From: a virus
Lineage: Duplodnaviria; Caudoviricetes
Strand: one strand, 5' to 3'
Length of the DNA stretch: 64,000 nucleotides
IMG/VR virus record: IMGVR_UViG_3300037455_001397
Coordinates: 1-64,000 of that record
Shown: positions 3,191-64,000 of the stretch, one piece after another
How the letters are laid out: each line of letters begins with the position of its first letter
Numbering within the stretch: the stretch's first letter is position 1
Notes under the pieces: model-generated
What the model saw: the letters and a program-made list of their open reading frames with translations, nothing else
What the model was told of the DNA's origin: nothing
The model's database searches: none
Program-made: the position numbers and the translations under genes

Positions 3191-3784
3191 ATGAACAAGA
3201 CAAACAGGCTCAGAAGGATGCTCAGACGAGGTTTTGTCGATGCCGCGGCAGCACACAGGGCTGGAATTCCAATCAGTCTTGTATACCCTCTTGTTAAGAC
3301 CGGCGAAGCCAGGCGCGTTTCAAGAGGCATCTATTCATCGGCAAATGCCGGATATTCTGATATGGCGGATTACGAAACGCTTGCCATGACTGTTCCGCAG
3401 GGAGTGTTCTGTCTGCTTTCCGCCCTTCGGCTGTACAATCTGACGGATGAAAATCCTCATGAGCTTTATGTCGCCATTAAGCGAGGATACCATCCTCCGC
3501 GCGTTGCCCACCCGCCAGTCTGTTTCGTTTACCGGAGTGAACCACATTATTCAGCTGAGGTGGAGACCCGCCTGTCAAATGGAATTCCAATCCGGGTGTA
3601 CAGCCTGGAGCAAACGCTTGTGGATTGTTTCAAGGCCAGAAACAAAATCGGTCTGGACGTTGCCATTTCCGCTCTGCGGGAAGCATTCAACAATAACATG
3701 GTCGACCGAAACAATCTTTGGGAGGCCGCAAATCGTTGTCGGGTTTCGCGGGTCATGCGTCCCTACCTGGAGGCACTTTCATGA
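3191..3784 (+). CDS. abiEi: Type IV TA / abortive infection antitoxin AbiEi
   Basis: RVSRGIY wHTH, GVFCLLSALRLYNLTDENP, YSLEQTLVDCFK; coupled to downstream nucleotidyltransferase. Confidence 0.85.
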   Translation: MNKTNRLRRMLRRGFVDAAAAHRAGIPISLVYPLVKTGEARRVSRGIYSSANAGYSDMADYETLAMTVPQGVFCLLSALRLYNLTDENPHELYVAIKRGYHPPRVAHPPVCFVYRSEPHYSAEVETRLSNGIPIRVYSLEQTLVDCFKARNKIGLDVAISALREAFNNNMVDRNNLWEAANRCRVSRVMRPYLEALS

Positions 3785-7425: not shown

Positions 7426-8007
7426 ATGCCTGATTTCAAACTGACATTCCAAGAAGAAGTCCGCCGTCTTGCCCGCAAGGAAGTAAAAGCCGCTAGCGAA
7501 ACCCTTGCCGCACAGCAGAAGACCATTCGTGAGCTGACGAAACGCATTGACGCCCTTGAAAAGAAACAGGCTGTTCCCGTTGCACAGAAAGCTGATAAAC
7601 CGGAAGAACCGGCTGTCGCAGTGAAATCCGGCAAGGCCAGATTCTCTCCGAAGACCATTATCAAGTTCCGCAAGAAATACGGCATCTCCCAGAAGGGTTT
7701 TGCCGCCCTTCTCGGCGTTGCCACCTTTACGGTCAGCCATTGGGAACTCGGCAAGAATCGTCCTCGTGCCACGCAAGTCGCGGCTATCAGCGCACTGACG
7801 AAACTCGGCAAGAGGAAAGTTGCCGCGCTCCTGGCGGAGAAAGCTCCCGCCGAAGTCGCCAAGAAGCCTACCAAGGCTGCCAAGCCCGCAAAGGCCGACA
7901 AGCCCGCAAAGAAGGCCAGAAAGCCCAGAGCTCCGAAGGCCACAAAGACTGTTGCCGTTCCCGCTCCTGCCGTGGCGACAGACAAAGTCATCACCGTAAA
8001 GCCCTGA
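7426..8007 (+). CDS. XRE-family HTH protein with Lys/Ala/Pro-rich tail
   Basis: IIKFRKKYGISQKGFAALLGVATFTVSHWELGKNRP; KKPTKAAKPAK tail. Confidence 0.8.
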   Translation: MPDFKLTFQEEVRRLARKEVKAASETLAAQQKTIRELTKRIDALEKKQAVPVAQKADKPEEPAVAVKSGKARFSPKTIIKFRKKYGISQKGFAALLGVATFTVSHWELGKNRPRATQVAAISALTKLGKRKVAALLAEKAPAEVAKKPTKAAKPAKADKPAKKARKPRAPKATKTVAVPAPAVATDKVITVKP

Positions 8008-8527
8008 ACCCGACGCAAAACAACGGGTTTTGCATAACGCGCGACAAACGCGATTTGTCGCGTTTTGCCAGTATGATCCCAAACCGGCAAACGCCCGCAA
8101 GCCCCGTCAAATCGCCCTTTGCAACCCCTTAAAAGGCAGGGAAATATAAAACTCGGACAACCGCGGAAACTCTGCCTATTAGGGGGAGTCCTTCCGCGCG
8201 CCATAAGCCATTGATACTCAAGGAGTACCTAATGCGACCTTTTCGAGGTCGGTTTTTTCGACCCCGTGGTATTTTCGAAGAAGGCCGAATTTCGGGGTTT
8301 TGGGGCGATTTGAGGGGCTTTACGGCCTCGCGCGACCTCATACCCGCGCGAGAACGTCGCGCGAATTTGGGCCGTTTCTCGCGTTTCCGTTATTTCTTAT
8401 GGAATCGTGCTTGACTTTCTCGCGAGTGCGTGGTATCGTATGGTACCTTTTCGGGGCTCTGCGTGAGGTGCGCAGGGCAGCCGGCGGTCTCTCGCGGGAT
8501 CGCCGGTAATTTTTTGAGTTTGAGCTC

Positions 8528-46819: not shown

Positions 46820-47060
46820 CTGCGAAGAATTATAGAAAAACCGCTTGACTTTTCTGTAAAAGCATAATCGGAGAATCTTCGATTTTTCTTTCGTTTTCGA
46901 CTTGCTTTTTGGAAAAAGGGATAGTCGAAGAAAAACTGGTCTTTCTTCGGAAACCGACTTGATATTGAGGCAAACAATGCTCAAGAAGAAAGTTCAATTA
47001 AAAACGCTTATTTCTCTGTAAAAGACTGGCTATTAACGAATAGTACGCTAAATTAACAAC
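46820..47060 (+). promoter_or_regulatory. Phased repeat array plus cassette promoter 1
   Basis: CTTG at 46844, 46901, 46958, then GACTGGCTATTAACGAA at 47024. Confidence 0.8.
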
Positions 47061-47107
47061 AGAACGGGAAGCATAGGGCGACCCACACGACAACAAGGAG
47101 ATGCAAC

Positions 47108-47368
47108 ATGAAAAAGAGAATCGAATGCAAGATTCCCGAATCCTTCTGGAACACCGAAGCCGGTCAGAAAATCGCCGGAGCAATGCACAGCGATGGCTGG
47201 GAAGCTTCGGACTGCCTCACGAGCGTGATAGACCTTCTCGAAGATGGCATCAGGAACTCGCAAGACATGGCAATCGTCGAGGAACTGAAGAAAGCACAGA
47301 AGCAGGTGGCCGCCGCCAAGAAAGCCCTCTGGAAAGCATCCGACATCCTCCGCGAAACAGGATTCTGA
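47108..47368 (+). CDS. Cassette hypothetical protein
   Basis: 86 aa, AAGGAG RBS, followed by hairpin. Confidence 0.7.
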   Translation: MKKRIECKIPESFWNTEAGQKIAGAMHSDGWEASDCLTSVIDLLEDGIRNSQDMAIVEELKKAQKQVAAAKKALWKASDILRETGF

Positions 47369-47439
47369 ACCGCAACACTCGAACACCCCGCTGCCCTGAG
47401 CGACGGGGCTCTCTTTTCGACAATCCTTTTGAAAAAAAG

Positions 47440-47640
47440 ATTATCGAAGAAAGATCGGTTTTTCTTCGGAAACCGACTTGATATTGAGGCGAATCATGCT
47501 CACGAAGAAAGTTCTATTAAAAACGCTTATTTCTCTATAAAAGACTGGCTATTAACGAATAACGCGCTAAATTGTTAATGTCGAGCGGGCGAATGGAACA
47601 CCTGCGAAAGAAACAAAAAACTGCCAACAGACGGAGGCAC
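47440..47640 (+). promoter_or_regulatory. Repeat unit plus cassette promoter 2 and stem-loop leader
   Basis: Near-duplicate of 46925-47055; GACTGG at 47543. Confidence 0.8.
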
Positions 47641-47643
47641 AAG

Positions 47644-47955
47644 ATGGACGAAGAAAAAATCCTCAGAGACACCGAAACCGGCGAAGAATTCACCTATGAG
47701 GAAATCGAAGCCGAGTACGAACGACTCAAACGCGATGGGGAAACCGAAGCGGAAACAATCGGGGACTACATCGAAAACATCACGGCCCCAAACGGAACAT
47801 GCGAGTGGATCGACGAAACCTGGCACAAATGCGAATGGTGCGGTGAAATCTACCCCGAAAGCGACCTGAGAGAGGAGAAGGACCTCGGCTACCTCTGCGA
47901 ACACTGCATCCTTGCCATCTCGAGCCGCGGCGAAGACCTCTACCTGAAATACTGA
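47644..47955 (+). CDS. Acidic Zn-finger cassette protein
   Basis: CEWC..CEHC, very acidic; GGAGG RBS. Confidence 0.7.
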   Translation: MDEEKILRDTETGEEFTYEEIEAEYERLKRDGETEAETIGDYIENITAPNGTCEWIDETWHKCEWCGEIYPESDLREEKDLGYLCEHCILAISSRGEDLYLKY

Positions 47956-48011
47956 AACCCAAACGGGAGCCCGCCGAACGGCGGGTTCCCAAACAACCTA
48001 CGGAGGACAAA

Positions 48012-48446
48012 ATGGAACAGTCAATCATCGACAAACTGAACGCCCCCATACAGAAGGACATGCTTCGAGTCGAGGGAATCATGAAAAAACTGGAGATGAA
48101 TTTCGCGGAAGGCTACATGGACGAGGTCGCGGAAGCGATATGCAGAATCCGTCCGCAAACACAGACAAAAGTACGCCCGATTGATTTGAAAGAAGCATGG
48201 GAGTTTTCCAATAGAGCAATAAGAGTTGCGACCGACCTTGCCCGGATAAAACTTGCCGAAAAAATCAAGGCTGAATACCTGAGTCGAGCAACTGCCGATG
48301 AAACCAAGTTGAAAGGCTGGTCAAATAAAGCCGCACTGTACTTCATCTACGGAATGGATTACGAACGCCCCATCACTGAAAAGCTTGATAAGGCGGTCGA
48401 GGCAGAAGTCTACGATGCAATCAAAAAATACCTCGGATTCGAATAA
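48012..48446 (+). CDS. Cassette hypothetical protein
   Basis: 144 aa, GGAGG RBS. Confidence 0.7.
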   Translation: MEQSIIDKLNAPIQKDMLRVEGIMKKLEMNFAEGYMDEVAEAICRIRPQTQTKVRPIDLKEAWEFSNRAIRVATDLARIKLAEKIKAEYLSRATADETKLKGWSNKAALYFIYGMDYERPITEKLDKAVEAEVYDAIKKYLGFE

Positions 48447-48629
48447 TCCGAACCCAACGCCCGCGCGACAGCGGGCTTTATTCGTTTAGTTGGGGCTATG
48501 TGTCGCGTGACGTGCCGGATTGACCTATTACAAAATGCGACCCCCTATGCTAACTCGGACAAAGAGCCGTTTCCGGCCGTTGTTTGCCAAAAATCATAAT
48601 TGACCAGGCCGAGCAAACGTCCAAAATCT

Positions 48630-49000
48630 TTTCTCGATATTTCTCGGAAAAAGCCGGAATAAAACTTGACTTTTCCGAAAAAGCATAATCGGAGAATCTT
48701 CGATATTTCTTCCGAAAAAGACTTGACTTTATCAAAAAGGGATTATCGAAAGAATGTTCGATATTTCTTTCGTTTATGGCTGGACTTTTGTTTTATCCAT
48801 GCTCCGGCGTTCTTCGCGTCTTGATAGACATTCTAAAACGACCCCGTTCCGAGCTCGGAATAAAAGTCGAATAAAAGTCCTTATTTCTTCGATTAACGAC
48901 TGGCTATTAACGAATTATGCGCTTAATTAATTGATGTCGAGCGGGCGGCACGGGCCGCCTGCGAACCAAACGAAAAATGCCAACCCTGATGGAGGCAAAC
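48630..49000 (+). promoter_or_regulatory. Phased repeat array plus cassette promoter 3 and leader
   Basis: CTKG at 48665, 48722, 48780; GACTGG at 48898. Confidence 0.8.
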
Positions 49001-49252
49001 ATGAGCAAGACGAACATCAAGCTCAACCTGGAAGGAGTGGACGGGAATGCGTTCTGCATCCTGGGCCACGCGATGCGCGCACTGAGACAGAACCACAAGA
49101 TGGAACTCTGGGACGAGTTCCACGCCGAAGCCACCTCCGGCGACTACAACAAACTCCTCTGCACGGTCTCCGACTGGTTCGACGTCTGCTTCGGCGACGA
49201 AGACGAAGATGAAGACGAGTACGACTTCGACTGCGAAGGCGACGAAGACTGA
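49001..49252 (+). CDS. Small acidic phage protein (DGNAF motif)
   Basis: LEGVDGNAFCILG..ATSGDYNKLL; D/E tail. Confidence 0.75.
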   Translation: MSKTNIKLNLEGVDGNAFCILGHAMRALRQNHKMELWDEFHAEATSGDYNKLLCTVSDWFDVCFGDEDEDEDEYDFDCEGDED

Positions 49253-49308
49253 ACCCCCAACAGCATGGCCCGCCGCCTGGCGGGTCATGCCCAACCGGAG
49301 AACAAAAC

Positions 49309-49539
49309 ATGAAAAGACTGCAAACCGAAAGCCTGATCGCCGCGATGAACAGCATCTGCTATGTGGCCACGGGCGAACCGAGCGGAATCTCCGAGGTCTG
49401 GAACGGAGACCTTGACGAGCTCGAAGAACACCTCGAAAAGATTGAAATCTACGCCGAGGACGAAGGAATGACCGAAACCGCCAAGGAGCTGTTCGCGGCC
49501 GCCCACCACATCATCGAAGCCTTCCGAAAAGAAGAGTGA
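49309..49539 (+). CDS. Small acidic cassette protein
   Basis: 76 aa with RBS; terminator at 49551-49580. Confidence 0.7.
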   Translation: MKRLQTESLIAAMNSICYVATGEPSGISEVWNGDLDELEEHLEKIEIYAEDEGMTETAKELFAAAHHIIEAFRKEE

Positions 49540-49579
49540 ACATCGAACACGCCCGGCCGGATGCCGGGCAACTCTTTTT

Positions 49580-49823
49580 TCGCTTTTTCTTCGCATTTCG
49601 ACTTGCTATTCAGAAATACCATGCTCCGAAAGAATCTTCGTTATTTCTTCGCTTTCACACTTGACATTCCGATAAGCTCGTTATGAGCAGAATAAAAAGA
49701 AAGATTCGTATTTCTTCGATAAAAGACTGGATTAAGTTTCTTTAAGCGCTTAATTAATAGCAGAGCGAGGCTGAACGAGGTCGCGCGAACCAAACGAAAA
49801 ACTCCAAACTGACGGAGGAAACG
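49580..49823 (+). promoter_or_regulatory. Phased repeats plus cassette promoter 4 and leader
   Basis: CTTG at 49602, 49660; GACTGG at 49725. Confidence 0.75.
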
Positions 49824-50090
49824 ATGATCGAAATCATCAAGCATGACGGAGCCTGGACAGTGGCCAAGGCAGTGTTCGAAGGCAAAAACTATCACATCGA
49901 AACCAAGCACTTCGAGCTGCCGAGCGAATTCGGAATCAACAACGGGCGCATCAGCAAGCTGTTCATCAGCGAGGGGACGAGCTGGAACCCTGACAAATGC
50001 CGGTGCGCCTACGACCGCGGCTGGGATCGCAGACCGAGAACGAAGGCGGCCAAGGCCATCTACAATGAAATCCTCGCGATGTACAACTGA
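49824..50090 (+). CDS. DUF7678-like phage protein
   Basis: PSEFGINNGRISKL..YDRGWD. Confidence 0.7.
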   Translation: MIEIIKHDGAWTVAKAVFEGKNYHIETKHFELPSEFGINNGRISKLFISEGTSWNPDKCRCAYDRGWDRRPRTKAAKAIYNEILAMYN

Positions 50091-50102
50091 GGAGGAGCGA
50101 CC

Positions 50103-50567
50103 ATGGCAAACAACTGCTTCATCGAAATCTCGCTCGAAACCGAAACCTCCGAACAGGCCAAGGGGCTCCGCAAGGAGCTCCGGGCCGCCTTCCGGCAGGC
50201 TGCTCGCGAAAACGTCGGAGCCTACTTCGGGAGCGACCGTTACTTCTTCGACGGCAAAGTCGAACAGGACGGAACGGAGGTGTTCATCGGCGGCTGGGTC
50301 AAGTGGGGATACAGCGACGGCGAGTTCATCGACATGTTCAGCTGGCTCCGCCGCAAGACCGCAATCAAGAAGTTCCACATGCACTACGAGGAGCTCATGA
50401 CCGACCAGTACGGCGAATACGAACTTCACGCGGACGGCACGGTCTGGAACAACTTCCTGCTCGAAAAAGATTTCCCGACCGAGACCGACGACTACGAAGC
50501 CTACTGCGAAAAGGTCGAGGAAGCCTTCCGCACAAAACCCGCCACAAGATTCATCGAGGTCGGCTGA
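50103..50567 (+). CDS. Hypothetical protein (YubB/DUF1281 ferredoxin-like?)
   Basis: MANNCFIEI..GWVKWG..YEE. Confidence 0.6.
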   Translation: MANNCFIEISLETETSEQAKGLRKELRAAFRQAARENVGAYFGSDRYFFDGKVEQDGTEVFIGGWVKWGYSDGEFIDMFSWLRRKTAIKKFHMHYEELMTDQYGEYELHADGTVWNNFLLEKDFPTETDDYEAYCEKVEEAFRTKPATRFIEVG

Positions 50568-50640
50568 ACAGAAACCACCAACGGTCCCGCCACCCTGGCG
50601 GGGCCGAAATATCCACACCCCAACATAAGGAACACTCACA

Positions 50641-50826
50641 ATGGAAACCAAAACCGTCGAACAGTCCATGAAGGAACTCGAAAACCGTGTGCATCTTCTG
50701 ATGGAAGAACTCTCGGCCGCCGGGCAGGAAAACCTCGCCAATCGCATCCAGGACATCTGGGATGAGACCAACTTCCTCCGCGACGAACACCCGGACTTCA
50801 ATTTCGGGAAGTGGCGCGAAGCGTAA
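50641..50826 (+). CDS. Small cassette protein
   Basis: 61 aa with AAGGA RBS. Confidence 0.6.
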   Translation: METKTVEQSMKELENRVHLLMEELSAAGQENLANRIQDIWDETNFLRDEHPDFNFGKWREA

Positions 50827-50893
50827 CCGCCAGTATTCGGCAATAATGGCTTTCCCGTAAAGTCAAGCTCAAAATCGAAGAAAACCGAATCTT

Positions 50894-50955
50894 TCCGCAG
50901 ATTCGTCGGACGACCTCTTCGCCTCCGTCAGGGCTTTCGTTCGCGAATCTGCGGA
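50894..50955 (+). ncRNA. Candidate 62-nt hairpin RNA element with anti-Shine-Dalgarno loop (copy A)
   Basis: TCCGCAGATTCG..CGAATCTGCGGA stem; loop TCGCCTCCGTCAGGGCT shared with copy B. Confidence 0.5.
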
Positions 50956-51164
50956 TTTCTATGCACGGGTATCGCAATTATGCGAAACGTCGCTCGCTTA
51001 TGCCGGAACGTGCGATCATGCGCCTGGGGTCGCATGTTTCAAATCGAACGCCGGGGATACGTCGGCCAAATACCGGCCTTTCTGGCGGGCGTTTGGCGTT
51101 TTGAATAGAGATCAGACGCGCAAAGCGGCCCGAAACCGGGCATCGGATGTTGTCGGTACCGAAA

Positions 51165-51358
51165 ATCTTTTTTCGATATTTCTTCGATCTTCGGCTGGAT
51201 TTATCAACTTTCCATGCTCCCGAATAAAGTCCGAATTAAGTTCGAATAACCTCGGTTTCCGACTGGCTATTCACGAATAGAACGCTAAATTTACAAACGA
51301 GCGCGGGAGATACGGAAAACCCGCGGAAACCGAAACCCAAACGAAGGAGAACAGAAAA
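51165..51358 (+). promoter_or_regulatory. Repeat unit plus cassette promoter 5 and leader
   Basis: CTGG at 51195; GACTGG at 51261; CGCGGG..CCCGCG leader hairpin. Confidence 0.75.
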
Positions 51359-51592
51359 ATGCCAGACAGATTTCTGACGGCAACGAAATGTGCAAGATGC
51401 GGCGGGTCGCTTGATGGCGGCAGGATAATGAGCCGGTTCAATGAGGATGTCCTCTGCCTCGACTGCGAACGCGAAGAGCGCCAGCATCCGGACTACCAGA
51501 AGGCTGCCGATGCGGAACTCGCCGCTGTTCGTCGTGGCGACATGAACTTCCCCGGCATCGGCTGGCCGGGAAAGAACGGTCGCGTGAAGTGA
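51359..51592 (+). CDS. Small Zn-finger phage protein
   Basis: CARCGGSLDGGRIMSRFNEDVLCLDC..GDMNFPGIG. Confidence 0.75.
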   Translation: MPDRFLTATKCARCGGSLDGGRIMSRFNEDVLCLDCEREERQHPDYQKAADAELAAVRRGDMNFPGIGWPGKNGRVK

Positions 51593-51633
51593 AACAAGAA
51601 CAACAGGCCGTCGCCAGAAGGTGGCGGCCAGTA

Positions 51634-52092
51634 AATCTTTCTTCGATATTTCTTGATATTTCGCTTGCTTTTCCGAAAAGAGCATAATCAAAGAATCTTC
51701 GATATTTCTTCCGAAAAAGACTGGATTATATTGAAACCGCGTTACGGAAAGAAAGTTCGATAATTCTTCGCTTTTCCGCTTGACTTCCCCTTTTTCCATG
51801 CTCGAAAGAATAATCGATATTTCTTTCGTTTTCCACTTGCTATTCTGCTTTTCCATGCTAGAAAAGAATAATAGATATTTCTTCGCTTTCTGACTTGATA
51901 TTTCTCTTTTACCTCATTTCGAGCAGAAAGACGGCTTTATTAAAATAATCGGAAGAAAGTTCGATAAAAAGCGTTATTTCTTCGATAAACGACTGGCTAT
52001 TAACGCTTTCCATGCTTAATTAACTAATGTCGAGCGGGATGCACGGGCAACCCGCGAACCAAACAAGAATGCCAACCAAGACGGAGGCAAAC
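51634..52092 (+). repeat. Five-unit 57/58-bp array plus cassette promoter 6 and leader
   Basis: CTKG at 51664, 51721, 51779, 51836, 51894; GACTGG at 51991. Confidence 0.88.
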
Positions 52093-52986
52093 ATGAGCGA
52101 GAACAACATCCTCGACACCGCGAAAACCCTGGGCTTCGGAACGGAGCTCGAATACACTCACATCAGCCGCGAAGGAGCCGCGAGAGCAATCCAGAGCGTG
52201 GTCGGCGGCAACATCAGCCACACCGGCGGGAGCTACGACGCCTGGACGGTCACCGCCCCTGACGGACGGAAATGGAAGGCGGTCAGCGATGGCAGCCTCA
52301 GCGGAACCTCGGCAGAGGTGGTCACGCCCATCCTGCACTGGGAAGACTTCGATACCCTGCAGAAGGTGGTGCGCGCCCTGCGCCACGCCGGAGCCAAGAC
52401 CCCGGCCTGCACGAGCCAGCACGTCCACGTCGGAGTCGAAGACTTCACGGCGGCGCAAATCGCGAACTTCGCGAGAATCTGGTACAAGCAGGAAAAGCTC
52501 ATCCTCAAGGCGGTCGGAACCCTGCCGAGCCGCCTCGCACACTACACGAAGCCGACCGACCGCGAGTTCATCGACCGCCTCGAAAAGATGAAACCGCAGA
52601 CCCGCCAACAGCTGAACATCGCCTGGTACGGGTACGCGAACCCGCGTCCTGCCCACTACGACAGCACCCGCTACCGCGCCATCAACCTCAACAACGTGTG
52701 GACCACGGGGACGGTCGAGCTGAGGTGCTTCAATGGCTGTAATCATGCGGGCAAGGTCAAAACAGCCGCGATTCTTGCCCTGATGATCGCCGCCAAGGCC
52801 AAGACCGCGAAGTGCGCGAGCACGAAGAAGCCGCGCGAGTACAGCGAGGAGAGCGCCGCCTACGATATGCGGGTGTTCCTCCTCCACCTCAAGGCAATCG
52901 GGCCGGAGTTCAAAAACTTCCGCAAGCACCTCCTCGACAACCTGCCGGGGAACAAGGCGTGGAAGCACGGCAGGCCGAACGCCTGA
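52093..52986 (+). CDS. Putative amidoligase (COOH-NH2 ligase type 2)
   Basis: FGTELE, WKAVSDGSL, AEVVTPIL, HVHVG, RYRAIN, TVELRCFNG. Confidence 0.88.
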   Translation: MSENNILDTAKTLGFGTELEYTHISREGAARAIQSVVGGNISHTGGSYDAWTVTAPDGRKWKAVSDGSLSGTSAEVVTPILHWEDFDTLQKVVRALRHAGAKTPACTSQHVHVGVEDFTAAQIANFARIWYKQEKLILKAVGTLPSRLAHYTKPTDREFIDRLEKMKPQTRQQLNIAWYGYANPRPAHYDSTRYRAINLNNVWTTGTVELRCFNGCNHAGKVKTAAILALMIAAKAKTAKCASTKKPREYSEESAAYDMRVFLLHLKAIGPEFKNFRKHLLDNLPGNKAWKHGRPNA

Positions 52987-53027
52987 CCGACCAGCCGGAG
53001 GGGGCCGGACAACCGGCCTCCTCACCT

Positions 53028-53194
53028 CAGCATGGCTTGCCGAAAAAGCAAGCGGTTCTTTGAAATAAAACGAAAGAAATTCGGATAATCCGGTTTTCGG
53101 AATAGCAAGTCCAAACCGAAAGAAAAACGCGACTTTCTGCCGATTATGCCTTTCCCGAAAAGTCAACCGGAAATCCGAAGAAAAACGAATCTTT
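53028..53194 (-). repeat. Three inverted copies of the 57/58-bp unit
   Basis: CAAG/CAAC at 53049, 53106, 53164; AGCATGG-N13-CAAG is the reverse complement of the unit. Confidence 0.8.
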
Positions 53195-53256
53195 TCCGCA
53201 GTTTTGCCGGGGACCTCACTCGCCTCCGTCAGGGCTGTTTCCGGCGAAACTGCGGA
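53195..53256 (+). ncRNA. Candidate 62-nt hairpin RNA element (copy B)
   Basis: TCCGCAGTTTTGCCGG..CCGGCGAAACTGCGGA stem with compensatory changes relative to copy A. Confidence 0.5.
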
Positions 53257-53437
53257 TTTTAATTCGAGCATTCTAAATCGCTTCCCCTATGCCGATTATG
53301 CCAAACGTCGCTCGCTTTGGGCTCAACGTGCGATTCGGCAGCCGGGGAAGCACCCCCCAAATCCAACCGCATAAATCAACCCCCACAAACGGCCCCGGAA
53401 CGGCCACAAAACCCGTAAAGAATAGGAGGTCAGACCT

Positions 53438-53716
53438 ATGAAAATCAGAATTCACGAAATGGACATCGACGGTACCCCTGTCGCCTATACCGGCGAATAC
53501 TATGTTGGCGCGAACGCCACCGAGATTGTCGAAGCCATGAAAAAGAACCCGTTCCAAATCGACCTCACGGTCGAAGAATACATGCGGAAGATTCTCGATA
53601 AAATCGGCAAGGCGGACTATGTCCTCACCGAGGACGATGCCCCGCTGGAGTTCCTGAATCTGCTCGCCAAACTCAATTATGCTTCCTTCGAGGAGCAGGA
53701 GGTCAAGGTAAAATGA
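53438..53716 (+). CDS. Hypothetical protein
   Basis: 92 aa with AGGAGG RBS. Confidence 0.7.
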   Translation: MKIRIHEMDIDGTPVAYTGEYYVGANATEIVEAMKKNPFQIDLTVEEYMRKILDKIGKADYVLTEDDAPLEFLNLLAKLNYASFEEQEVKVK

Positions 53717-54057
53717 ACGCTATCTTCATCGATGCCCAAAACAAGACTGTCAGCCTGATCGAGATTGAAAACGATCTCCAGGCCATGTACGACAAAATCG
53801 GATGCCTGCTCGTGCAGACCGTTCCCTTTGCCGGGGAAAACATCGTCTGCGATGAGGAAGGACGCCTCAAGCGGTGGACTTCCGGATTCGAGCTCGGCGA
53901 CTGGCGCATCGTCGGCAACGCCCTGATCGTCGGCGACACCGAGGACGGGGACTTCGCGGACACGAAACTGTTAGCAGAAGAGATCGCAAAGCAAATCCGG
54001 TTCTTCGGCGAAGACGAACCGCTGCCACCTCCGGAATTCCATGTCATCGGGCTGTGA
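53713..54057 (+). CDS. DUF3846-like protein
   Basis: IENDLQAMYDKIG..CDEEGRLK..IVGNALIVG. Confidence 0.7.
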   Translation: MNAIFIDAQNKTVSLIEIENDLQAMYDKIGCLLVQTVPFAGENIVCDEEGRLKRWTSGFELGDWRIVGNALIVGDTEDGDFADTKLLAEEIAKQIRFFGEDEPLPPPEFHVIGL

Positions 54058-55749: not shown

Positions 55750-57837
55750 ATGTCTGCCATAAACGACCTTGTCCGACAGATCACAGACCCTGATCTGCGA
55801 GAAAAACTTCAAAAAGAAGTCAACAAGTTGGCCAAACAGAAAAAGTTCGGTTTGGTCTTTGAGGAGCATCTTCCAGAATGTACTCCGCTGTGGGATATGC
55901 CAGTACGTCGCGGAGCAAAGGTCGCACTCAGGTCCGGTCCCGTCAGTGATTTTTATCAAGTTGTTCAAATTAAAAAGGGAATGGCTCAATGTATCCGTCG
56001 AGGTGAGTCCGAGGCGGTTGAATTCTCGATTGGGGATCTTGTTCCCATCGCTGAGTTCGGAGAACCAATTTATCCATATTTGAAGCCGATAGATGCTGTG
56101 TGCAATGCGCCGGACAACGACCTATGGCATACATTGATTGAAGCAGACAACTATCATGCTTTGCAGCTTTTGGAGTATCTCTATGCAGGAAAGGTGGATT
56201 GTATCTATATTGATCCACCCTATAACACAGGTGCACGTGATTGGAAATACAACAATGATTACGTGGACAGCACCGACCAATACCGACACAGCAAATGGCT
56301 TTCCATGATGCAGAAGCGGCTCCGTATTGCAAAGAAACTCCTCAATCCTAATGAATCAGTTTTGATTATTACTATTGACGAAAAAGAGTATTTACATCTT
56401 GGATGCCTGCTGGAAGAGATGTTTCCTGAAGCAACAACCCAAATGATTTCTTCCGTTATTAATCCAAGCGGCTCAAAAAGACTAAATGAGTTTTCGAGAA
56501 GTGACGAGTACATTTTCTTTGTGATGATTGGTGCGGCTGTACCTTGTGGAATAAAAACTGAAGCAAGTTCTGAAAAGAACAGTATCAGTTGGGAAACATT
56601 TAGGCGACACGATCTGCAATCAAAACGTGGCACATCGAAAGGCGGGACGGCTCAATTTTACCCACTTTATGTTGATACAAAAACTGGAAAGATTGCAGAA
56701 ATAGGTAATCCCATTCCTCCGAATATAGATATAAAAACTGTCCCCAATAGACCTGGATGCACAACCGTATTTCCGATTCGAGATAATGGAATTGAAATGA
56801 ACTGGGGGGCAAGGCCTGAAACGGCAAGAGAACTGCTGAAAAATGGATATCTCAAAGCAGGAGAACGCAAGGAAAATACCCCCCAGAAATATGTGGTTAA
56901 ATACCTGACCTCAGGGACAATCGAAGATATCAAGGATGGTACAGCCATTGTGGATGGATATGATACTGATGGCTCAATTATAGCACATTATGAAAACGGA
57001 AAAGATGTTATGCCTAAAACGAACTGGAACGAAAAAAGTCATAATGCAAATGCATATGGAAGCAAGATAATAAAGGATATAATAGGCAATAGGTTTAGTT
57101 TCCCGAAATCATTATATGCAGTACATGATTGCATTGATTTGTTCGTAAGAAATAAGCCTAATGCTATAGTCATTGATTTCTTTGCCGGTTCTGGAACAAC
57201 ACTTCACGCTGTCAATCTGTTGAACGCGGAAGATGGTGGTCATCGTCGTTGTATTCTTGTCACTAATAACGAAGTTTCGGATGATGAGGCAAAAGAAATG
57301 TCCTCTCGAGGACTTAAGCCTGGCGATGAGGAATGGGAGAAACTCGGCATAGCTCAGTACGTCACATGGCCACGCACAGTTTGCTCCATCGAAGGTCATG
57401 ATGTAAAAGGCAATCCACTGAAGGGAACCTATCTCGGCAGTGATTTCCCAATGGCGGATGGTTTTAAGTCAAATGCGGCATATTTTAAGCTTGGATTCCT
57501 TGATAAAACCTCAGTAGCTCTCGGAATGCAATTCAAGGAAATGCTGCCGACTCTATGGATGAAGGCAGGATCTCATGGACCATGTCCTTCACTGACTGAT
57601 ACTCCTGCAGACATGCTGATCCTGGCTGAAAACAGAATGGCCGTCTTGATGAACGAAAATGACTTTTCTTCATTCTCTGAGAAGGTTAATGCCATGCCCG
57701 AAATCAAAACAGTATTTATCATTACAGACTATGATATTAATTATCGCAACATGGTAAGTGCTCTGAAAGGAAAGACTACCTTCCAGCTTTACAGGGACTA
57801 TCTGGATAATTTCCGGATTAATTATGGGAGGAACTGA
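55750..57837 (+). CDS. mod: Type III restriction-modification methyltransferase (Mod)
   Basis: KKFGLVFEEH, YIDPPYNTG, FPKSLY, DFFAGSGTT. Confidence 0.88.
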   Translation: MSAINDLVRQITDPDLREKLQKEVNKLAKQKKFGLVFEEHLPECTPLWDMPVRRGAKVALRSGPVSDFYQVVQIKKGMAQCIRRGESEAVEFSIGDLVPIAEFGEPIYPYLKPIDAVCNAPDNDLWHTLIEADNYHALQLLEYLYAGKVDCIYIDPPYNTGARDWKYNNDYVDSTDQYRHSKWLSMMQKRLRIAKKLLNPNESVLIITIDEKEYLHLGCLLEEMFPEATTQMISSVINPSGSKRLNEFSRSDEYIFFVMIGAAVPCGIKTEASSEKNSISWETFRRHDLQSKRGTSKGGTAQFYPLYVDTKTGKIAEIGNPIPPNIDIKTVPNRPGCTTVFPIRDNGIEMNWGARPETARELLKNGYLKAGERKENTPQKYVVKYLTSGTIEDIKDGTAIVDGYDTDGSIIAHYENGKDVMPKTNWNEKSHNANAYGSKIIKDIIGNRFSFPKSLYAVHDCIDLFVRNKPNAIVIDFFAGSGTTLHAVNLLNAEDGGHRRCILVTNNEVSDDEAKEMSSRGLKPGDEEWEKLGIAQYVTWPRTVCSIEGHDVKGNPLKGTYLGSDFPMADGFKSNAAYFKLGFLDKTSVALGMQFKEMLPTLWMKAGSHGPCPSLTDTPADMLILAENRMAVLMNENDFSSFSEKVNAMPEIKTVFIITDYDINYRNMVSALKGKTTFQLYRDYLDNFRINYGRN

Positions 57838-57839
57838 CA

Positions 57840-60683
57840 ATGATCAACGATTTGTTCTCGTTTCAACAACAGGCCGTAAATGAGCTCAGAGTAAAAACCG
57901 CAATGGCCATGAACAATTATCGTGCTTGTCAGGTTCCTCAGGTTATTTCTCTTCAGGCACCGACCGGTTCGGGCAAAACCATTATCATGGCGGCTTTTGT
58001 GGAGGATGTGTACTTTGGTTCCGACCAATATACAGAACAGCCAGACGCTATCTTCGTGTGGCTATCCGATTCTCCTCAACTGAACGAGCAATCCAGGCAG
58101 AAATTTGAACAGAAAGCAGACAGGCTGAGGCTGACGCAATATGTGACGATTACAGACGAAAGTTTTGATCAGGAAGTGCTGGATGATGGTCACATCTACT
58201 TTTTGAATACACAAAAGCTTGGAAGAGGCGGCAATCTGGGGAAGCATTCCGATACACGCCAATACACAATCTGGGAAACGATAGAGAACACAGCCAAGAA
58301 TAAATCTGACCGGCTGTATTTCATTATTGATGAAGCACATCGAGGAATGATGGGTAACGCAGCTGGAACGGCCACTTCGATCATGCAGCGATTTATTAAG
58401 GGAAGCCCTGCACATCAGCTTTCTCCTGTCCCGGTGATTGTGGGCATGAGTGCAACCTCAGAACGTTTTGATAGTTTGATAGGCAAAGACACGACCTCAA
58501 CACTTCAGAAAGTCATTGTCAGCCCTGCTCAGGTCCGTGCGTCTGGTCTCCTGAAGGACCGAATCGTTATTACTTATCCAGAGGATCCGACCAAACATAA
58601 TGACATGGCCGTCCTTCAGGCTGCGACCGACGAATGGCGGGAAAAGTGCCAGCATTGGTATCAGTACACATATGAACAGCATTATACCAATGTCAACCCC
58701 GTGTTTGTGATTCAAGTAAAGGCGGGGAATGGAAGCAAAGTATCCGATACAGACCTGAATGACGTTATTGCTAAAGTCGAAGAACGGCTGGGGAAGCAGT
58801 TCAAAGAAGGAGAAGTCGTTCACACTTTTGGCTCCACAGGCACGATTACGATAAACGGACTGAACGTCCCTCATATTGAACCTTCGGACATCGCAGATAA
58901 CAGGAAGGTCAAGATCGTATTATTCAAAGAAAACCTTTCAACAGGATGGGACTGCCCACGAGCTGAAACAATGATGTCTTTCCGCGTGGCAGAGGATGCG
59001 ACCTATATTGCACAGCTTCTTGGCCGGATGGTACGTACCCCTTTGCAGTGTCATGTCGTGGTTGACGATTCTCTGAATGAGGTCAGGCTTTTCCTGCCTT
59101 ATTTCAACAAAGACAATGTGCAGAAAGTCATTGACGAATTGCAAAGCACAGAAGGTGGAGAAATCCCGACCGTTGTGGATGGGGAATCGCTTGAGGACCA
59201 GATATACGTTCCCTGGTCAGTTCATGTCTCTTCCGGCAGCAAATCCAGAAAAGGGACACAAGATCCAGATCAACCGGACTTATTCGGGGGAGAGGGAGAA
59301 TCCCCGTATTCGGAAGAACAATCCCATCCTGCCGATGCCGGGCAAGCAAATGCAAGTGTTAAGTCAGATAATGGCCAGATGCTACCTTCACAGGATAACA
59401 ATGCTGTATCCAGCGAAGCAAGTCAGGCCACCAAACCAGCAGGTCATGAAGGCGATGGAAATACTGCATCTGACAAGCCCGTTCTAAATGCTGCTACACC
59501 GATCCAGATGTCTCTTTTCCCTGAGATAGATCGAGAAGCTGTGATCCACTTTATCAATGAACAAGGCTTCCTCACGTATCAGATTCGTATTACGAAAGTT
59601 AACAGTTATCTGAAATCATTGCTGAGTCTTGCCGGAATCCTCACGCAGAATCTGATTTATCAGGGGGCAAATGACGAGGTCAAGGATGAAGTTACCGACC
59701 TGATGCAAGCATATATCCGGGACCTGAAAGACAGGGGGAAATATGATGATCTTGCCAAGAAGGTCCTGGAATTTAAGCTTTCCATACAAATATTCGATCC
59801 GTTTGGAGAAAAAATCGAAAATTCAACTCATTACGACCTGTTTGAGGCTTCAGAAACGGATTTGGACAGGCAGCTTCGTGCAGCCGATGCTAAACTGGGG
59901 GGATATGGTTTCCCGTTTGTATATGGTCGCAGATTCATTGATTTCGACAATCCAAATGCATTTAAGATCGACTGCATTCTTTTTGCTGCGGATGAGGAGT
60001 GTATTCGCAAACTGAACCAATATGCTGAAACAAAATTCCACGCATTAAATGACAAATATCGCAAATATGTCATTTCAAAATCCGAAAAATGCAGAAAACA
60101 GTACAGCGATATTGTTGCAAACGGAGATGAGATCAGTAAACACAACTTTACGCTCCCGGAAATGATTAGCGCGAGGGTGGACAAAGGCGGCGATGTTTAC
60201 AGAGATCATCTTTATGCTGACGCTCATGGAAATGCCCGCATCAAATTGAACGATTGGGAAAAAAGCGTTCTTGAAGAAGAACAAAGACGTGAAGATTTCG
60301 TCTGCTGGCTTCGAAATTTTGACCGGCAATCCTGGTCATTACGAATTCCCTATGAGATTGACAATACAGTGAAGGCTGCCTATCCAGATTTGATCATCAT
60401 CCGCAGAGATCCTGACTTGGGGTATATTATGGACATCCTTGAACCACATAGCCCTGATTTTAAGGATAATCTTGGAAAAGCCAAAGGCTTTGCTGCTTAT
60501 GCACGGGAAGAGATGAAGATAGGCAGGATTCAACTGATTCGCACAGCGAAAGATGCCGCCGGGAAAAACAGATTCAGAAGGCTGGATATGGGAAAAGGAA
60601 TCGTCAGAGACAAGGTTACTGCTGCGATTAACAATGATGAGTTGGACCATATCTTTGATACGGACGGAGAATACGAAGACTGA
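57840..60683 (+). CDS. res: Type III restriction helicase/endonuclease (Res)
   Basis: APTGSGKT, IIDEAH, GMSAT, GWDCPRA, QLLGRMVR, YPDLII..ILEPH. Confidence 0.85.
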   Translation: MINDLFSFQQQAVNELRVKTAMAMNNYRACQVPQVISLQAPTGSGKTIIMAAFVEDVYFGSDQYTEQPDAIFVWLSDSPQLNEQSRQKFEQKADRLRLTQYVTITDESFDQEVLDDGHIYFLNTQKLGRGGNLGKHSDTRQYTIWETIENTAKNKSDRLYFIIDEAHRGMMGNAAGTATSIMQRFIKGSPAHQLSPVPVIVGMSATSERFDSLIGKDTTSTLQKVIVSPAQVRASGLLKDRIVITYPEDPTKHNDMAVLQAATDEWREKCQHWYQYTYEQHYTNVNPVFVIQVKAGNGSKVSDTDLNDVIAKVEERLGKQFKEGEVVHTFGSTGTITINGLNVPHIEPSDIADNRKVKIVLFKENLSTGWDCPRAETMMSFRVAEDATYIAQLLGRMVRTPLQCHVVVDDSLNEVRLFLPYFNKDNVQKVIDELQSTEGGEIPTVVDGESLEDQIYVPWSVHVSSGSKSRKGTQDPDQPDLFGGEGESPYSEEQSHPADAGQANASVKSDNGQMLPSQDNNAVSSEASQATKPAGHEGDGNTASDKPVLNAATPIQMSLFPEIDREAVIHFINEQGFLTYQIRITKVNSYLKSLLSLAGILTQNLIYQGANDEVKDEVTDLMQAYIRDLKDRGKYDDLAKKVLEFKLSIQIFDPFGEKIENSTHYDLFEASETDLDRQLRAADAKLGGYGFPFVYGRRFIDFDNPNAFKIDCILFAADEECIRKLNQYAETKFHALNDKYRKYVISKSEKCRKQYSDIVANGDEISKHNFTLPEMISARVDKGGDVYRDHLYADAHGNARIKLNDWEKSVLEEEQRREDFVCWLRNFDRQSWSLRIPYEIDNTVKAAYPDLIIIRRDPDLGYIMDILEPHSPDFKDNLGKAKGFAAYAREEMKIGRIQLIRTAKDAAGKNRFRRLDMGKGIVRDKVTAAINNDELDHIFDTDGEYED

Positions 60684-60717
60684 CAAAAGGAAAAGAACCA
60701 GAGGAAACGAAGCCATC

Positions 60718-61986
60718 ATGCCGAAATACAATTTCATAGATCTATTTGCCGGCGCGGGTGGCCTTTCTGAAGGTTTTATTCAGGCAGGCTTTGTGCCTTT
60801 GGCTCATGTTGAAATGAATCCCTTCGCGGCAAAGACCATAGAAACGCGAAGTGCCTACTATTATCTGAAAGGAAAAAAGAATCTGTCGCTTTACTACAAA
60901 TATTTGAAAGGTGAAATGTCTCGTGATGAGTTTCTTTCGCAAATTCCTGAACAGTACAAAAAAAATGTTCTATGCGAAACCATGTCCAAAGAAACTCTTC
61001 CTGGCCTGTTCAAAACAATTGACGGTTTGATGGAAAAAAGGGGGCATGCAGCGGTGGATGTGATTATTGGAGGACCGCCATGCCAGGCGTATTCTCTTGT
61101 GGGGCGTGCTCAGAGCAGCCACATGGAAACGCCAATGGAAGAAGACCCTCGTAATGGGTTATATAAACTATATGCGAGTTTTCTAAAGAAGTATAATCCC
61201 CGGATGTTTGTCTTTGAAAATGTTATGGGGATTGAGTCAGCCAACAATGGGAAGACGTGGAAGAACATTCAGAAACGGCTGAAACAGGTAGGGTATGAAA
61301 TTGAATGTCATGAGCAGAATTCAAAGGACTTTGGAGTTCTTCAGAATAGACGGCGCATGATAATTGTAGGATGGCGAAAGTACAGTAATCTGAGATACCC
61401 TGAGTTTAAGAAAGTCTCTTTTGATGCAGTTGTGTACGATTTGCTCGATGATCTTCCTAGGCTTACCCCAGGGGAAAGTGCAGATAACTATAGAACCGTG
61501 CAGATTGGATCCTACTTGGCGGAAACAGGAATCAGAGTTTCAGACGATGTGCTGACGCTGCATTCTGCGAGGCCAAACAAAGACAGAGACATCGAAATAT
61601 ACAAAAGAGCTATAGAAGAGTGGAACGGCGGCCACAAGCGTCTTAATTACAATGATCTGCCTGACGATTTAAAAACACACAAAAACAGGGATTCCTTCCT
61701 CGACAGATTCAAGGTGGTCGAGGGGCATGAGAGGTATTGTCATACGATGCTGGCCCACATTTCCAAAGATGGGCACTACTTTATTCATCCTGATATTAAT
61801 CAACATCGCTCCATTACAGTAAGAGAAGCAGCGAGGATACAGTCTTTTCCAGACAGCTATTTCTTTGAGGGCCCCCGGACATCTCAATTTGTTCAGATTG
61901 GGAATGCCGTACCCCCGCTCATGGCAAAAGCTATTGCCAAAGGAATAGCCAAAGTCCTAAATCAGGGAGGGGGAGATGGAAAGTAA
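60718..61986 (+). CDS. C5 cytosine DNA methyltransferase
   Basis: DLFAGAGG, GGPPCQ, FENV, QNRRR, REAARIQSFPD, IGNAVPP. Confidence 0.92.
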   Translation: MPKYNFIDLFAGAGGLSEGFIQAGFVPLAHVEMNPFAAKTIETRSAYYYLKGKKNLSLYYKYLKGEMSRDEFLSQIPEQYKKNVLCETMSKETLPGLFKTIDGLMEKRGHAAVDVIIGGPPCQAYSLVGRAQSSHMETPMEEDPRNGLYKLYASFLKKYNPRMFVFENVMGIESANNGKTWKNIQKRLKQVGYEIECHEQNSKDFGVLQNRRRMIIVGWRKYSNLRYPEFKKVSFDAVVYDLLDDLPRLTPGESADNYRTVQIGSYLAETGIRVSDDVLTLHSARPNKDRDIEIYKRAIEEWNGGHKRLNYNDLPDDLKTHKNRDSFLDRFKVVEGHERYCHTMLAHISKDGHYFIHPDINQHRSITVREAARIQSFPDSYFFEGPRTSQFVQIGNAVPPLMAKAIAKGIAKVLNQGGGDGK

Positions 61987-64000
61987 TCTTCTGCTGGAAC
62001 AATACAGCCGATATAAGAAGATATTTTTGGGGGAATCTCCGTATAAGTGTCTTCTGAATGCAGACATTGAATTGAATCCACACCAGATCAATGCATTTAT
62101 TGCTGCCGTGCATGCACTGAAAACAGGCGGAATCGTTCTGGCAGATGAAGTTGGCCTTGGAAAAACCATAGAAGCCGGACTGGTGCTTAATTATGTTCTG
62201 GACTCTGGAGCTAAGAAGATTTTAATTGCCCTCCCGGCAACACTGCGCAAGCAATGGGAAGTGGAGCTTGAAGACAAGTTCGGCAAAAAAGCTGTTATTC
62301 TTGATCGTCAGACCGTTGAGAAAGATTATTACGGAATGAAGGACTGGATTGAAAAACCCGAAGTCCGAATTATCATCACCTCCTATGATTATGCATCCAA
62401 GCTGATGCGTCGTTTCCCTGCTGTGAAATGGGACTTTATCATCATTGATGAAGCTCATAATCTGCGCAATGTCTTCCATGGAACAAAACGTGCCAAGAAC
62501 CTTTATGAACTGTCCAAAGGTATTCCTAAAATTCTGCTGACCGCAACCCCCTTGCAGAATTCCCTTTCTGATCTCCATGGGCTCATCTCTTTTATTGACC
62601 CTAAAATATTTGGTTCGGAGCAGGTCTTTAACCACCGATTCATTGAAGGCCAAGACTACGAGACGCTCAAACAAGAATTACTGCCGGTTCTTTTCCGCAC
62701 ATTACGGAAAGATGTTGGTAAGTACATGGATTTCAAACGCAGGGAATGCATTACTGTCGATTTCCATCTAACTCAAGAGGAAAGCGATTTATACAATCTG
62801 GTTAACGCATTCCTGAAACGAGAAACTCTGCATTCGATTCCGACCAATAACAAAGGTCTGATTATTCTTGTAATTCGCAAACTGCTTGCCTCATCCAGCT
62901 TTGCCTTGGTTCAGACGTTTGAAATTCTCCGGAAAAGATTGGAGAAACTCTACCAAGGAACGAAATCAGCAAATGCCCAAGATGGCTTTAATCTTTTCTG
63001 GGACTTTGTGGAAGACGAAATGGATGAGTCTGATTTTGAAGAAAAGGAAGATTTGGATTCTGTCATTCAGAAGCAGGAAATCCAAGACGAACTCAACGCC
63101 GTTCAGGCAATTATTGATGTTGCCACTAAAATTTCTTCCAATGCTAAAGTTGCAGCATTAAAAACTGCTTTGAGAACAGCTTTTGCTCAGCAGGAGCACG
63201 AAGGTGTTCCACAGAAAGCTGTTGTATTTACAGAATCCAAGCGGACACAGAAATACATAGCAGCTGAACTAAGAAAAGATGGTTATGCGGAGGAAGATAT
63301 TCTTCTTTTTAATGGTGATTTTGATGATGCCATGTCCAAAGGGATCTTTCATGCCTGGCTGGTTAAGAACTTTAGAAAGACTAATTATGGCCGAAATGTG
63401 GAGTACAAGCATGCTATCGTGGATTATTTCAGTAACCATGCGAAAGTGCTGATTGTAACAGATGCGGGTTCCGAAGGATTGAACCTCCAGTTCTGCAACA
63501 CTGTAATTAATTATGATTTGCCTTGGAATCCACAGAAGATTGAACAACGGATAGGACGTTGTCATCGTTATGGACAGACACATGATGTGGTAGCAATCAA
63601 TTTGCTCAATACAGATAATGAGGCAGATAAAAGGGTATATGAGATTCTGTCCCGAAAATTTGAGCTGTTTGACGGTGTTTTTGGAGCTTCGGACGTGGCA
63701 TTGGGAACCTTGGAATCAGGTACGGGGTTTGAAAAGACCATTTTGGATATCTACCAGAAATGCAATTCTAATGCGGAGTTCATTCGGGCGTTTGAAACTT
63801 TGGACAAGCAACTGACATCAAAGATGAACAAGCAAGTAGTACAGCTTCGATCTATCCTGCTTACGGAAAGCCCGGAAGCCAAGGGGGAAGCATTGGAGAA
63901 TACGAGAGAAAATATTGAGAAATATCTGCACGATGTGGAATACTGGAATCAATTTGCAGAGCCAGAAATGGATGGCAATCTGTATTACTGGAAAATAGAC
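61976..64000 (+). CDS. SNF2-family helicase (partial, runs off window)
   Basis: Read by hand: MESNLLLEQ..LNPHQ..LADEVGLGKTIEAG..IIDEAH..LTATPLQN..EGLNLQ..YDLPWNP..EQRIGR. Confidence 0.88.
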   Translation, partial: MESNLLLEQYSRYKKIFLGESPYKCLLNADIELNPHQINAFIAAVHALKTGGIVLADEVGLGKTIEAGLVLNYVLDSGAKKILIALPATLRKQWEVELEDKFGKKAVILDRQTVEKDYYGMKDWIEKPEVRIIITSYDYASKLMRRFPAVKWDFIIIDEAHNLRNVFHGTKRAKNLYELSKGIPKILLTATPLQNSLSDLHGLISFIDPKIFGSEQVFNHRFIEGQDYETLKQELLPVLFRTLRKDVGKYMDFKRRECITVDFHLTQEESDLYNLVNAFLKRETLHSIPTNNKGLIILVIRKLLASSSFALVQTFEILRKRLEKLYQGTKSANAQDGFNLFWDFVEDEMDESDFEEKEDLDSVIQKQEIQDELNAVQAIIDVATKISSNAKVAALKTALRTAFAQQEHEGVPQKAVVFTESKRTQKYIAAELRKDGYAEEDILLFNGDFDDAMSKGIFHAWLVKNFRKTNYGRNVEYKHAIVDYFSNHAKVLIVTDAGSEGLNLQFCNTVINYDLPWNPQKIEQRIGRCHRYGQTHDVVAINLLNTDNEADKRVYEILSRKFELFDGVFGASDVALGTLESGTGFEKTILDIYQKCNSNAEFIRAFETLDKQLTSKMNKQVVQLRSILLTESPEAKGEALENTRENIEKYLHDVEYWNQFAEPEMDGNLYYWKID

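Follow-up and report, generated by a model that had tools for sequence, protein, structure and literature searches.

Does the loop of a hairpin at the end of a phage operon control the genes of that operon? The question is raised by the first 64 kb (the window, meaning the whole stretch of DNA that was analysed) of the 98.5-kb IMG/VR record IMGVR_UViG_3300037455_001397, in which an array of small plus-strand genes lies at 46.8–55.6 kb and two operons of this array end in paralogous hairpins, here called A and B. The hairpins share a loop core that is complementary to the Shine-Dalgarno regions of several genes of the array. An earlier note on this DNA had proposed a candidate RNA silencing system, acting either as a trans-acting small RNA (sRNA) or as a 3' fold-back element. 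Our analysis suggests that A and B are terminators with an anti-ribosome-binding-site loop, which probably, though with a good deal of room for doubt, pair with their own and with paralogous cassette leaders and limit translation.

Two paralogous hairpins at operon ends

Hairpin A (plus strand, 50894–50955) ends the operon 49824–50826 and consists of a 5' arm at 50894–50913 with a bulged T at 50906, a loop at 50914–50936 and a 3' arm at 50937–50955. Hairpin B (plus strand, 53195–53256) ends the amidoligase operon 52093–52986, with its arms at 53195–53214 and 53237–53256 and its loop at 53215–53236. Each is 62 nt long, with a stem of 19–20 bp and a loop of 22–23 nt. The plus-strand folds reach –35.0 and –38.9 kcal/mol (z –5.8 and –6.6), and none of 200 shuffled sequences folded as well. 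Between A and B the stems differ by one A-U/U-A swap, one change of C-G to U.G and a different inner stem, with pairing retained, while the 17-nt loop core (plus strand, 50919–50935 in A and 53220–53236 in B), which contains CCUCC and the apical hexamer CCGUCA, is identical. The 98.5-kb record holds no third copy of this core (0.2 expected by chance, with up to two mismatches). The earlier note was therefore right about two 62-nt hairpins at these positions, about stems that differ and still pair, and about an invariant loop core.

Homologues were sought in metagenomes with a pattern made of both stem bases and 11 loop bases, which returned 47 stretches. The true homologues are 27 hairpins at 24 loci, all from rumen samples and one in a rumen metagenome-assembled genome (MAG); at two loci an A-type and a B-type hairpin occur together, 2.3–2.8 kb apart, as in the window. 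A covariance model made from 14 distinct sequences scores the homologues at 77–104 bits, with nothing comparable elsewhere. In the model alignment (28 hairpins, 18 distinct sequences) 91% of the cells pair, an underestimate because the bulged T shifts the inner stem of the A-type hairpins, compared with 31–48% for slid partners; for the A-type hairpins taken by themselves the figure is 94.7%, with both sides changed at four pairs. The covariation score of the alignment was reached by none of 500 shuffles. Covariation among homologues had been proposed as a check in the earlier note, and the stem has indeed been kept through compensatory changes.

The same note had not recognised the sequence, and in Rfam 15 the whole window had no match at gathering thresholds, c4 antisense RNA and other phage sRNAs included. 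At E ≤10 the region 50700–53500 gave only chance-level matches of the microRNA type, of about 18 bits, touching hairpin B. Viral contigs scanned with the 17-mer, the downstream block and the promoter motif yielded one related phage contig only, and a 14-mer scan of viral contigs gave chance matches only. When model R1 was run against 61 genomes related to the host MAG, G001, it matched G001 alone; three other, weak matches were set aside as a coding-region coincidence (L194) or ordinary terminators.

Imperfect pairs in the stems are G.U on the plus strand at about nine site types, versus one doubtful A.C, and the plus-strand fold beats the minus-strand fold in 13 of 17 variants. Both observations speak for a plus-strand RNA over a DNA cruciform or a minus-strand RNA, and the evidence favours the view that both hairpins are plus-strand RNA structures. 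The earlier note had also considered that the minus strand might display GGA in a loop as a protein decoy. In such a reading a minus-strand transcript would offer its loop, which contains GGAGG, to ribosomes or to a protein that binds Shine-Dalgarno sites. The minus strand of both hairpins does fold (–31.4 kcal/mol), and inverted promoter-like units lie close by, but these units are downstream of the hairpin on the minus strand and so would not transcribe it, and the G.U pairs would turn into A.C mismatches. Disfavoured by this strand asymmetry, such a decoy seems to us extremely improbable.

It is also very improbable that the element works at the level of DNA, as an attC-like cruciform or recombination site bounding cassettes, a miniature inverted-repeat mobile element or an origin. 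The two hairpins flank a two-gene cassette in direct orientation, the cassette content varies between phages, and template switching can give quasi-palindromes apparently compensatory changes. However, the near confinement of G.U pairs to one strand does not fit such an element, and neither does the copy number, which is one or two per phage, with none elsewhere in G001 and no strong score in 60 related genomes. The stem bases have neither the R''/L''–L'/R' core nor the GTTRRRY motif of attC sites, and no integron integrase was found among the proteins scanned. An attC-like cassette boundary was rejected, as cassettes have been gained and lost at break points within the arrays of promoter-like units described below and not at the hairpins.

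What the hairpins do at the ends of their operons is indicated by their surroundings. Ordinary Rho-independent terminators usually have a stem of 5–14 bp and a loop of 3–8 nt, and most cassettes of the array end in such a short-loop terminator. Within the array, the sole exceptions are the two operons that end at 50826 and 52986; each of these transcription units is closed instead by a stable, G+C-rich hairpin. U-rich tails follow on the plus strand at 50956–50964 after A, where the tail is weak, and at 53257–53265 after B. A G+C-rich stem followed by a U-rich tract at the end of an operon is what an ordinary terminator looks like, but the long stem and the large loop (18–47 nt in relatives) are far outside the usual range, and the loop is under sequence constraint. 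Because the loop is too large, a consensus terminator scanner skips both hairpins. Distant prophages, fetched by way of amidoligase homologues of 71–77% identity, have a homologous hairpin at the end of the amidoligase operon, with the same kind of stem base and with compensatory differences, and in most of them it is followed by T5–T8 (L219, at 4537–4612, L226, L227, L229–L231 and L232). Because of these T-runs, the element is first of all a putative intrinsic terminator of its operon, a role that the silencing proposal had overlooked.

The terminator loop is enlarged to 43–52 nt in L220 (8054–8132), L222 (8063–8137), L226 (8127–8216) and L227 (about 7950–8030), where it holds the anti-leader part together with a small palindrome formed by a box of the promoter-like unit and its inverted copy. 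In L222 a second hairpin just upstream carries the same palindrome insert.

Complementarity between the loop and the cassette leaders

Four plus-strand leaders in the window are complementary to the loop. The leader of the operon that ends in A (49802–49818) has 10 complementary nt at 49809–49818, within a CTCC..GGAG mini-hairpin, and that of the amidoligase operon, which ends in B (52070–52089), has 9 nt at 52080–52088 within a TGCC..GGCA mini-hairpin; in relatives the latter match extends to 12–15 nt. Another 9 nt, at 47630–47638 and again in a TGCC..GGCA mini-hairpin, belong to the leader (47622–47639) of a gene whose start is the ATG at 47644. The best match in the window, of 13 nt (48984–48996; 12 Watson-Crick pairs and one G.U), is found in the leader (48978–48997) of the operon 49001–49539, which has an ordinary terminator of its own, so that its leader would be a target in trans. 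The four matches lie where the earlier note had placed them, and the TGCC..GGCA mini-hairpin is predicted in three of the leaders as it had claimed. That note's extension of the control to the whole cassette regulon was too broad, since one class of leader is complementary to the loop, amounting to 4 of about nine operon-first genes. The 4-bp stem of the mini-hairpin covaries (TGCC/GGCA, CTCC/GGAG and CGCC/GGCG). The predicted fold of hairpin B leaves the apical hexamer unpaired, and the target of this hexamer is predicted to lie in the loop of the leader mini-hairpin; a loop-loop (kissing) start of pairing would be geometrically plausible.

The comparison with relatives carries more of the argument. 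In phages of the window type, 16 distinct leaders form one class, with 9–15 Watson-Crick bases complementary to the loop and centred on the Shine-Dalgarno site. When the amidoligase leader is set against the hairpin loop in each lineage, 12 of 12 positions pair in L125 and L142 and 14–15 in L137 and L164, all of the window type. In L219, where the leader has an A-run after GGAG and the loop a U-run before CUCC, 11 of 11 positions pair; in L231 the count is 10 of 10 with one G.U, in L232 and L233 7 of 7, and in L220, L225 and L226, as in L227, 9 of 10 with one G.U and one A.G mismatch. Across six lineages, therefore, the sequence of the loop varies while its complementarity to 6–15 nt over the Shine-Dalgarno region of the amidoligase leader is kept. 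The change is seen in the leader hexamer whose last two bases are the initial GG of the Shine-Dalgarno site; this hexamer is UGACGG, CAACGG, CGAUGG or CAAUGG according to lineage and is matched by the loop hexamers CCGUCA, CCGUUG, CCAUCG and CCAUUG. The hexamers are fully complementary in five lineages, and in L219 five of six positions pair (AACGG with CCGUU). Compensatory changes in trans occur at positions –1, –3 and –4, with both partners changed and zero violations, and the native pairing of five loops with five leaders has the top score among 120 permutations. The pairing is thus supported beyond a single sequence, by co-variation in trans over six lineages and by the permutation test. 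In the prophages that have no hairpin (L223, L224 and L228) the leader differs.

Several points weigh against the pairing, or against parts of it. The lineages are few and related, and the permutation p of 1/120 is to be taken as a rough guide. In the window the cis partners share only 9–10 nt, and matches of that length are at chance level there (about 100 plus-strand runs of at least 9 nt, G.U allowed), while the 13-nt match is tied by one unrelated site at 20725. The duplex of L220, L227 and L222 contains an A.G mismatch or a bulge and is not above chance when taken alone, and duplex energies in these lineages show no preference for the own leader. The U-tracts behind the two hairpins of the window are weak, with 3–4 U in the first 9 nt. 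Finally, the metagenome pattern demanded 11 loop bases, so that the invariance of the loop among close homologues is partly built in. Two pieces of evidence for constraint on the loop are free of this bias: the paralogues A and B have the same 17 nt despite many differences in their stems, and the distant lineages were fetched through a protein, with the loop ignored. In a cross matrix of duplex energies, which is uninformative for the AU-rich loop of L219 and the 45-nt loops of the L220 type, own-lineage preference appeared for the window type only. The significance of the matches comes from their location on Shine-Dalgarno sites and from the comparison with relatives. A region of L219 (1024–1101) was not counted as a second anti-leader hairpin, since its 15-nt complement is mostly an A/T run.

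Could the complementarity be a by-product of how these regions are built? The hairpins might be plain intrinsic terminators or 3' stabilising hairpins, with a functionless inverted patch of leader left in the loop by the shuffling of modules. The regions between cassettes are mosaics of the same units in both orientations, the L220-type loop holds an inverted copy of a unit box, and the left flank of A is marginally similar to leaders (p 0.03–0.08, uncorrected), all of which would suit such an origin. But the flanks of B are unlike leaders (p 0.35–0.85), and the idea that a whole hairpin is an inverted leader copy was rejected for B and is marginal for A; because the resemblance between the reverse-complemented hairpin and the leaders does not extend beyond the loop, a simple inverted copy fails to explain the match. 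Nor does a relic account for a loop core that is unchanged between A and B while the stems differ at many positions, or for complementarity retained in six lineages though both partners changed, which would require repeated independent copying of a patch, or gene conversion over 6–15 bp across 1.1 kb; the latter is unlikely. We therefore regard a shuffling relic as an unlikely explanation. The proposal that the loop pairs with the ribosome-binding regions of the cassettes has gained comparative support, at three compensatory positions in six lineages, at the same time as its regulon-wide scope has been lost.

Adjoining elements, the accessory-gene array and the host

The earlier note had described each hairpin as lying 3' of an operon, after inverted repeat units and before a shared block. 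This arrangement is present, and the repeat extends further than had been noted, over about 240 nt (about 50835–51075 compared with 53135–53375), taking in an inverted promoter-like unit upstream and an 80-nt block downstream. One inverted unit (minus strand, 50835–50893) lies immediately 5' of hairpin A, and three (minus strand, 53040–53194) lie 5' of hairpin B; no plus-strand promoter conserved 5' of both hairpins was found. The non-coding block stands on the plus strand at 50970–51049 after A and at 53288–53367 after B, where the 5' region of the gene at 53438 includes it, and it is kept in all homologues. A small open reading frame in the block was ruled out, as it has no ribosome-binding site and is interrupted by an in-frame stop in L138. 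The genes at 53438–54057 have no promoter units and may rely on this block or on read-through of hairpin B.

The block raises the possibility that a protein, and not a leader, is the partner of the loop. The hairpin would then be a nut- or put-like antitermination signal or the operator of an RNA-binding regulator, with the loop as the recognition element and the block as a boxA-like partner. There are two copies per phage, each with a conserved loop on a covarying stem, the block, 35–55 nt downstream, carries a CGCTCGCTT motif resembling boxA, and the promoterless genes at 53438–54057 would need read-through of hairpin B. Against this, the loop varies between lineages and tracks the leader, several homologues have other sequence in place of the boxA-like motif, a scan of part of the prophage proteins showed no antiterminator-like gene, whether of the N, Q or another type, and Rfam gave no match. 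Compared with lambda nut and HK022 put sites, the element is a single hairpin with a changing loop, and it stands at operon ends, not directly behind early promoters. A protein-binding site of this kind is, in our estimate, quite improbable, and pairing with the leaders is the reading that we retain.

The array is modular. Each cassette comprises 57-nt promoter-like units in tandem and a final promoter-like box, and its leader carries a 5' stem-loop together with a strong Shine-Dalgarno site. Two to seven units of about 57 nt stand in tandem 5' of each cassette (46844–52021 in the window), and inverted copies of the unit sit 5' of hairpins A and B. A unit contains a T-rich dyad, a GACTTGAC/GCT box and a CATAATC/CATGCT box; the boxes are 12–14 nt apart, a spacing unsuited to a sigma-70 promoter, and in the last unit ahead of each leader there is a different –10-like box, with a better spacing. 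All cassette leaders (e.g. 48940–49000) have a strong 5' stem-loop, an A-rich linker and the 4-bp mini-hairpin around the Shine-Dalgarno site. Members of the array include DUF7678 at 49824, the amidoligase and a gamma-glutamyl cyclotransferase gene at 54163 that was assigned from its N-terminal sequence; in relatives, GGACT genes come after the amidoligase. Insertion sequence (IS) elements of the DDE_Tnp_1, IS66 and ISL3 families sit in the unit arrays of related prophages, directly up- or downstream of the amidoligase operon (5206–6579 in L220; 5096–6583 and 9827–11074 in L223).

The array is part of a prophage. By Pfam, replication and early genes occupy the minus strand at about 5–22 kb, a repressor gene of the S24-peptidase type is found at 22753, and portal, capsid, tape-measure and tail genes follow on the plus strand up to 44.6 kb. 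The relatives of the amidoligase bear the names Lentisphaeria, Victivallaceae and Oligosphaera in their sources, and for this reason the host is placed in the Lentisphaerota. From 55.7 kb the G+C content falls, and there follow restriction and helicase genes of the sort that host defence islands typically hold. The low-G+C region adjoining the prophage end (55750–64000 in the window and 64–98 kb of the record; L189–L191) encodes an N6/N4 methylase with a ResIII helicase, SNF2 helicases, an MrfA Zn-binding domain protein, a protein kinase, a McrBC-like pair of AAA_5 and DUF2357 proteins and an ankyrin-repeat protein, and is probably a defence island of the host. At its left edge (3718–4692 in the window) the record carries an AbiEii-type nucleotidyltransferase toxin gene.

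A possible mode of action and its known relatives

If the pairing takes place in the cell, transcription of the operon would end at the hairpin, and the loop, whether in the completed RNA or in a stable 3' decay fragment, would pair with the leader of the same mRNA about 1.1 kb upstream. The same loop could also pair with the paralogous leaders at 47630, 48984, 49809 and 52080. Display of the target in the small leader hairpin would allow a loop-loop contact to start the pairing, after which the apical hexamer and its flanks would cover 6–15 nt of the Shine-Dalgarno region, occluding the ribosome-binding site and blocking further initiation of translation; the duplex may in addition create a substrate for RNase III. 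The outcome would be that expression of the amidoligase and of sister cassettes limits itself. The structure with its compensatory changes, the strand preference, the terminator context and the co-variation of loop and leader are observed; pairing in vivo, its action in cis or in trans and repression as its effect are inferred.

The closest working likeness is to the icaR mRNA of Staphylococcus aureus, in which an anti-Shine-Dalgarno motif in its untranslated 3' region (3'-UTR) base-pairs with that mRNA's own Shine-Dalgarno region, prevents initiation and gives rise to a substrate for RNase III (PMC3868564). Here too each operon that bears a hairpin opens with a leader complementary to its 3'-UTR motif, over 10 nt for A and 9 nt for B. 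The sequences are unrelated, however, and the present motif sits in the loop of a terminator hairpin, is duplicated at two operon ends, matches the leaders of other operons and is known from sequence alone. S. aureus also provides RNAIII (hairpins H7, H13 and the terminator H14) and sRNAs like 6C, whose C-rich loops bind several mRNAs at their G-rich Shine-Dalgarno regions, in part through loop-loop contacts (PMC2837412, PMC6486639). Likewise, the hairpins of this prophage have a C-rich apical loop on a stable stem, and one of the RNAIII loops is that of its terminator. But RNAIII is transcribed from a promoter of its own as a dedicated regulatory RNA, whereas the hairpins here appear as the 3' ends of protein-coding phage operons, and their complementarity extends further, to as much as 15 nt, and is specific to the lineage.

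In phages, the idea that comes nearest is the c4 antisense RNA of P1 and P7, a structured RNA whose loops pair with the ribosome-binding region of the target and whose specificity alleles differ between related phages (reviewed in PMC12197685). Its target is likewise made from the same region. The c4 RNA lies upstream of the target in the same transcript, however, and is released by processing; the target genes are unrelated, and Rfam gave no match. Pairing of a 3' end with a 5' region is also familiar from the hok mRNA of plasmid R1, where the fbi element at the 3' end of the full-length mRNA pairs with the 5' region and keeps the mRNA translationally inert. The partner of the fbi element is the tac element and not a Shine-Dalgarno site, and hok belongs to a type I toxin-antitoxin system with the antisense Sok RNA; no such toxin or antisense gene was seen here. 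Pending experiments, the hairpins may be the same kind of regulator as the known 3'-UTR and C-rich-loop systems that act on Shine-Dalgarno sites.

A more ambitious idea, which we put forward tentatively and consider rather doubtful, is that the array forms a modular RNA circuit, in which the leaders of all cassettes would be of one kind and display the ribosome-binding site in a small hairpin, and the terminator loops of certain operons would serve as lineage-specific keys that close these leaders in cis and in trans. In such a circuit an early burst of expression would silence itself and the sister cassettes without a protein repressor, and specificity would evolve by paired changes of loop and leader, like the immunity alleles of P1 and P7. 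As Rfam lacks the motif, a new family could be deposited for it, and the natural co-varying alleles point to the compensatory mutants to be made. If the pairing is real, it would provide a compact and readily testable phage example of control of a 5' leader by a 3' end, from a nearly unstudied host phylum (the Lentisphaerota of the rumen), and it would join the handful of bacterial mRNAs for which regulation through their own 3'-UTR is known. One would also see from it how probable counter-defence or host-modifying genes, in an array with an amidoligase, two gamma-glutamyl cyclotransferases and small acidic proteins, can be made to limit their own expression.

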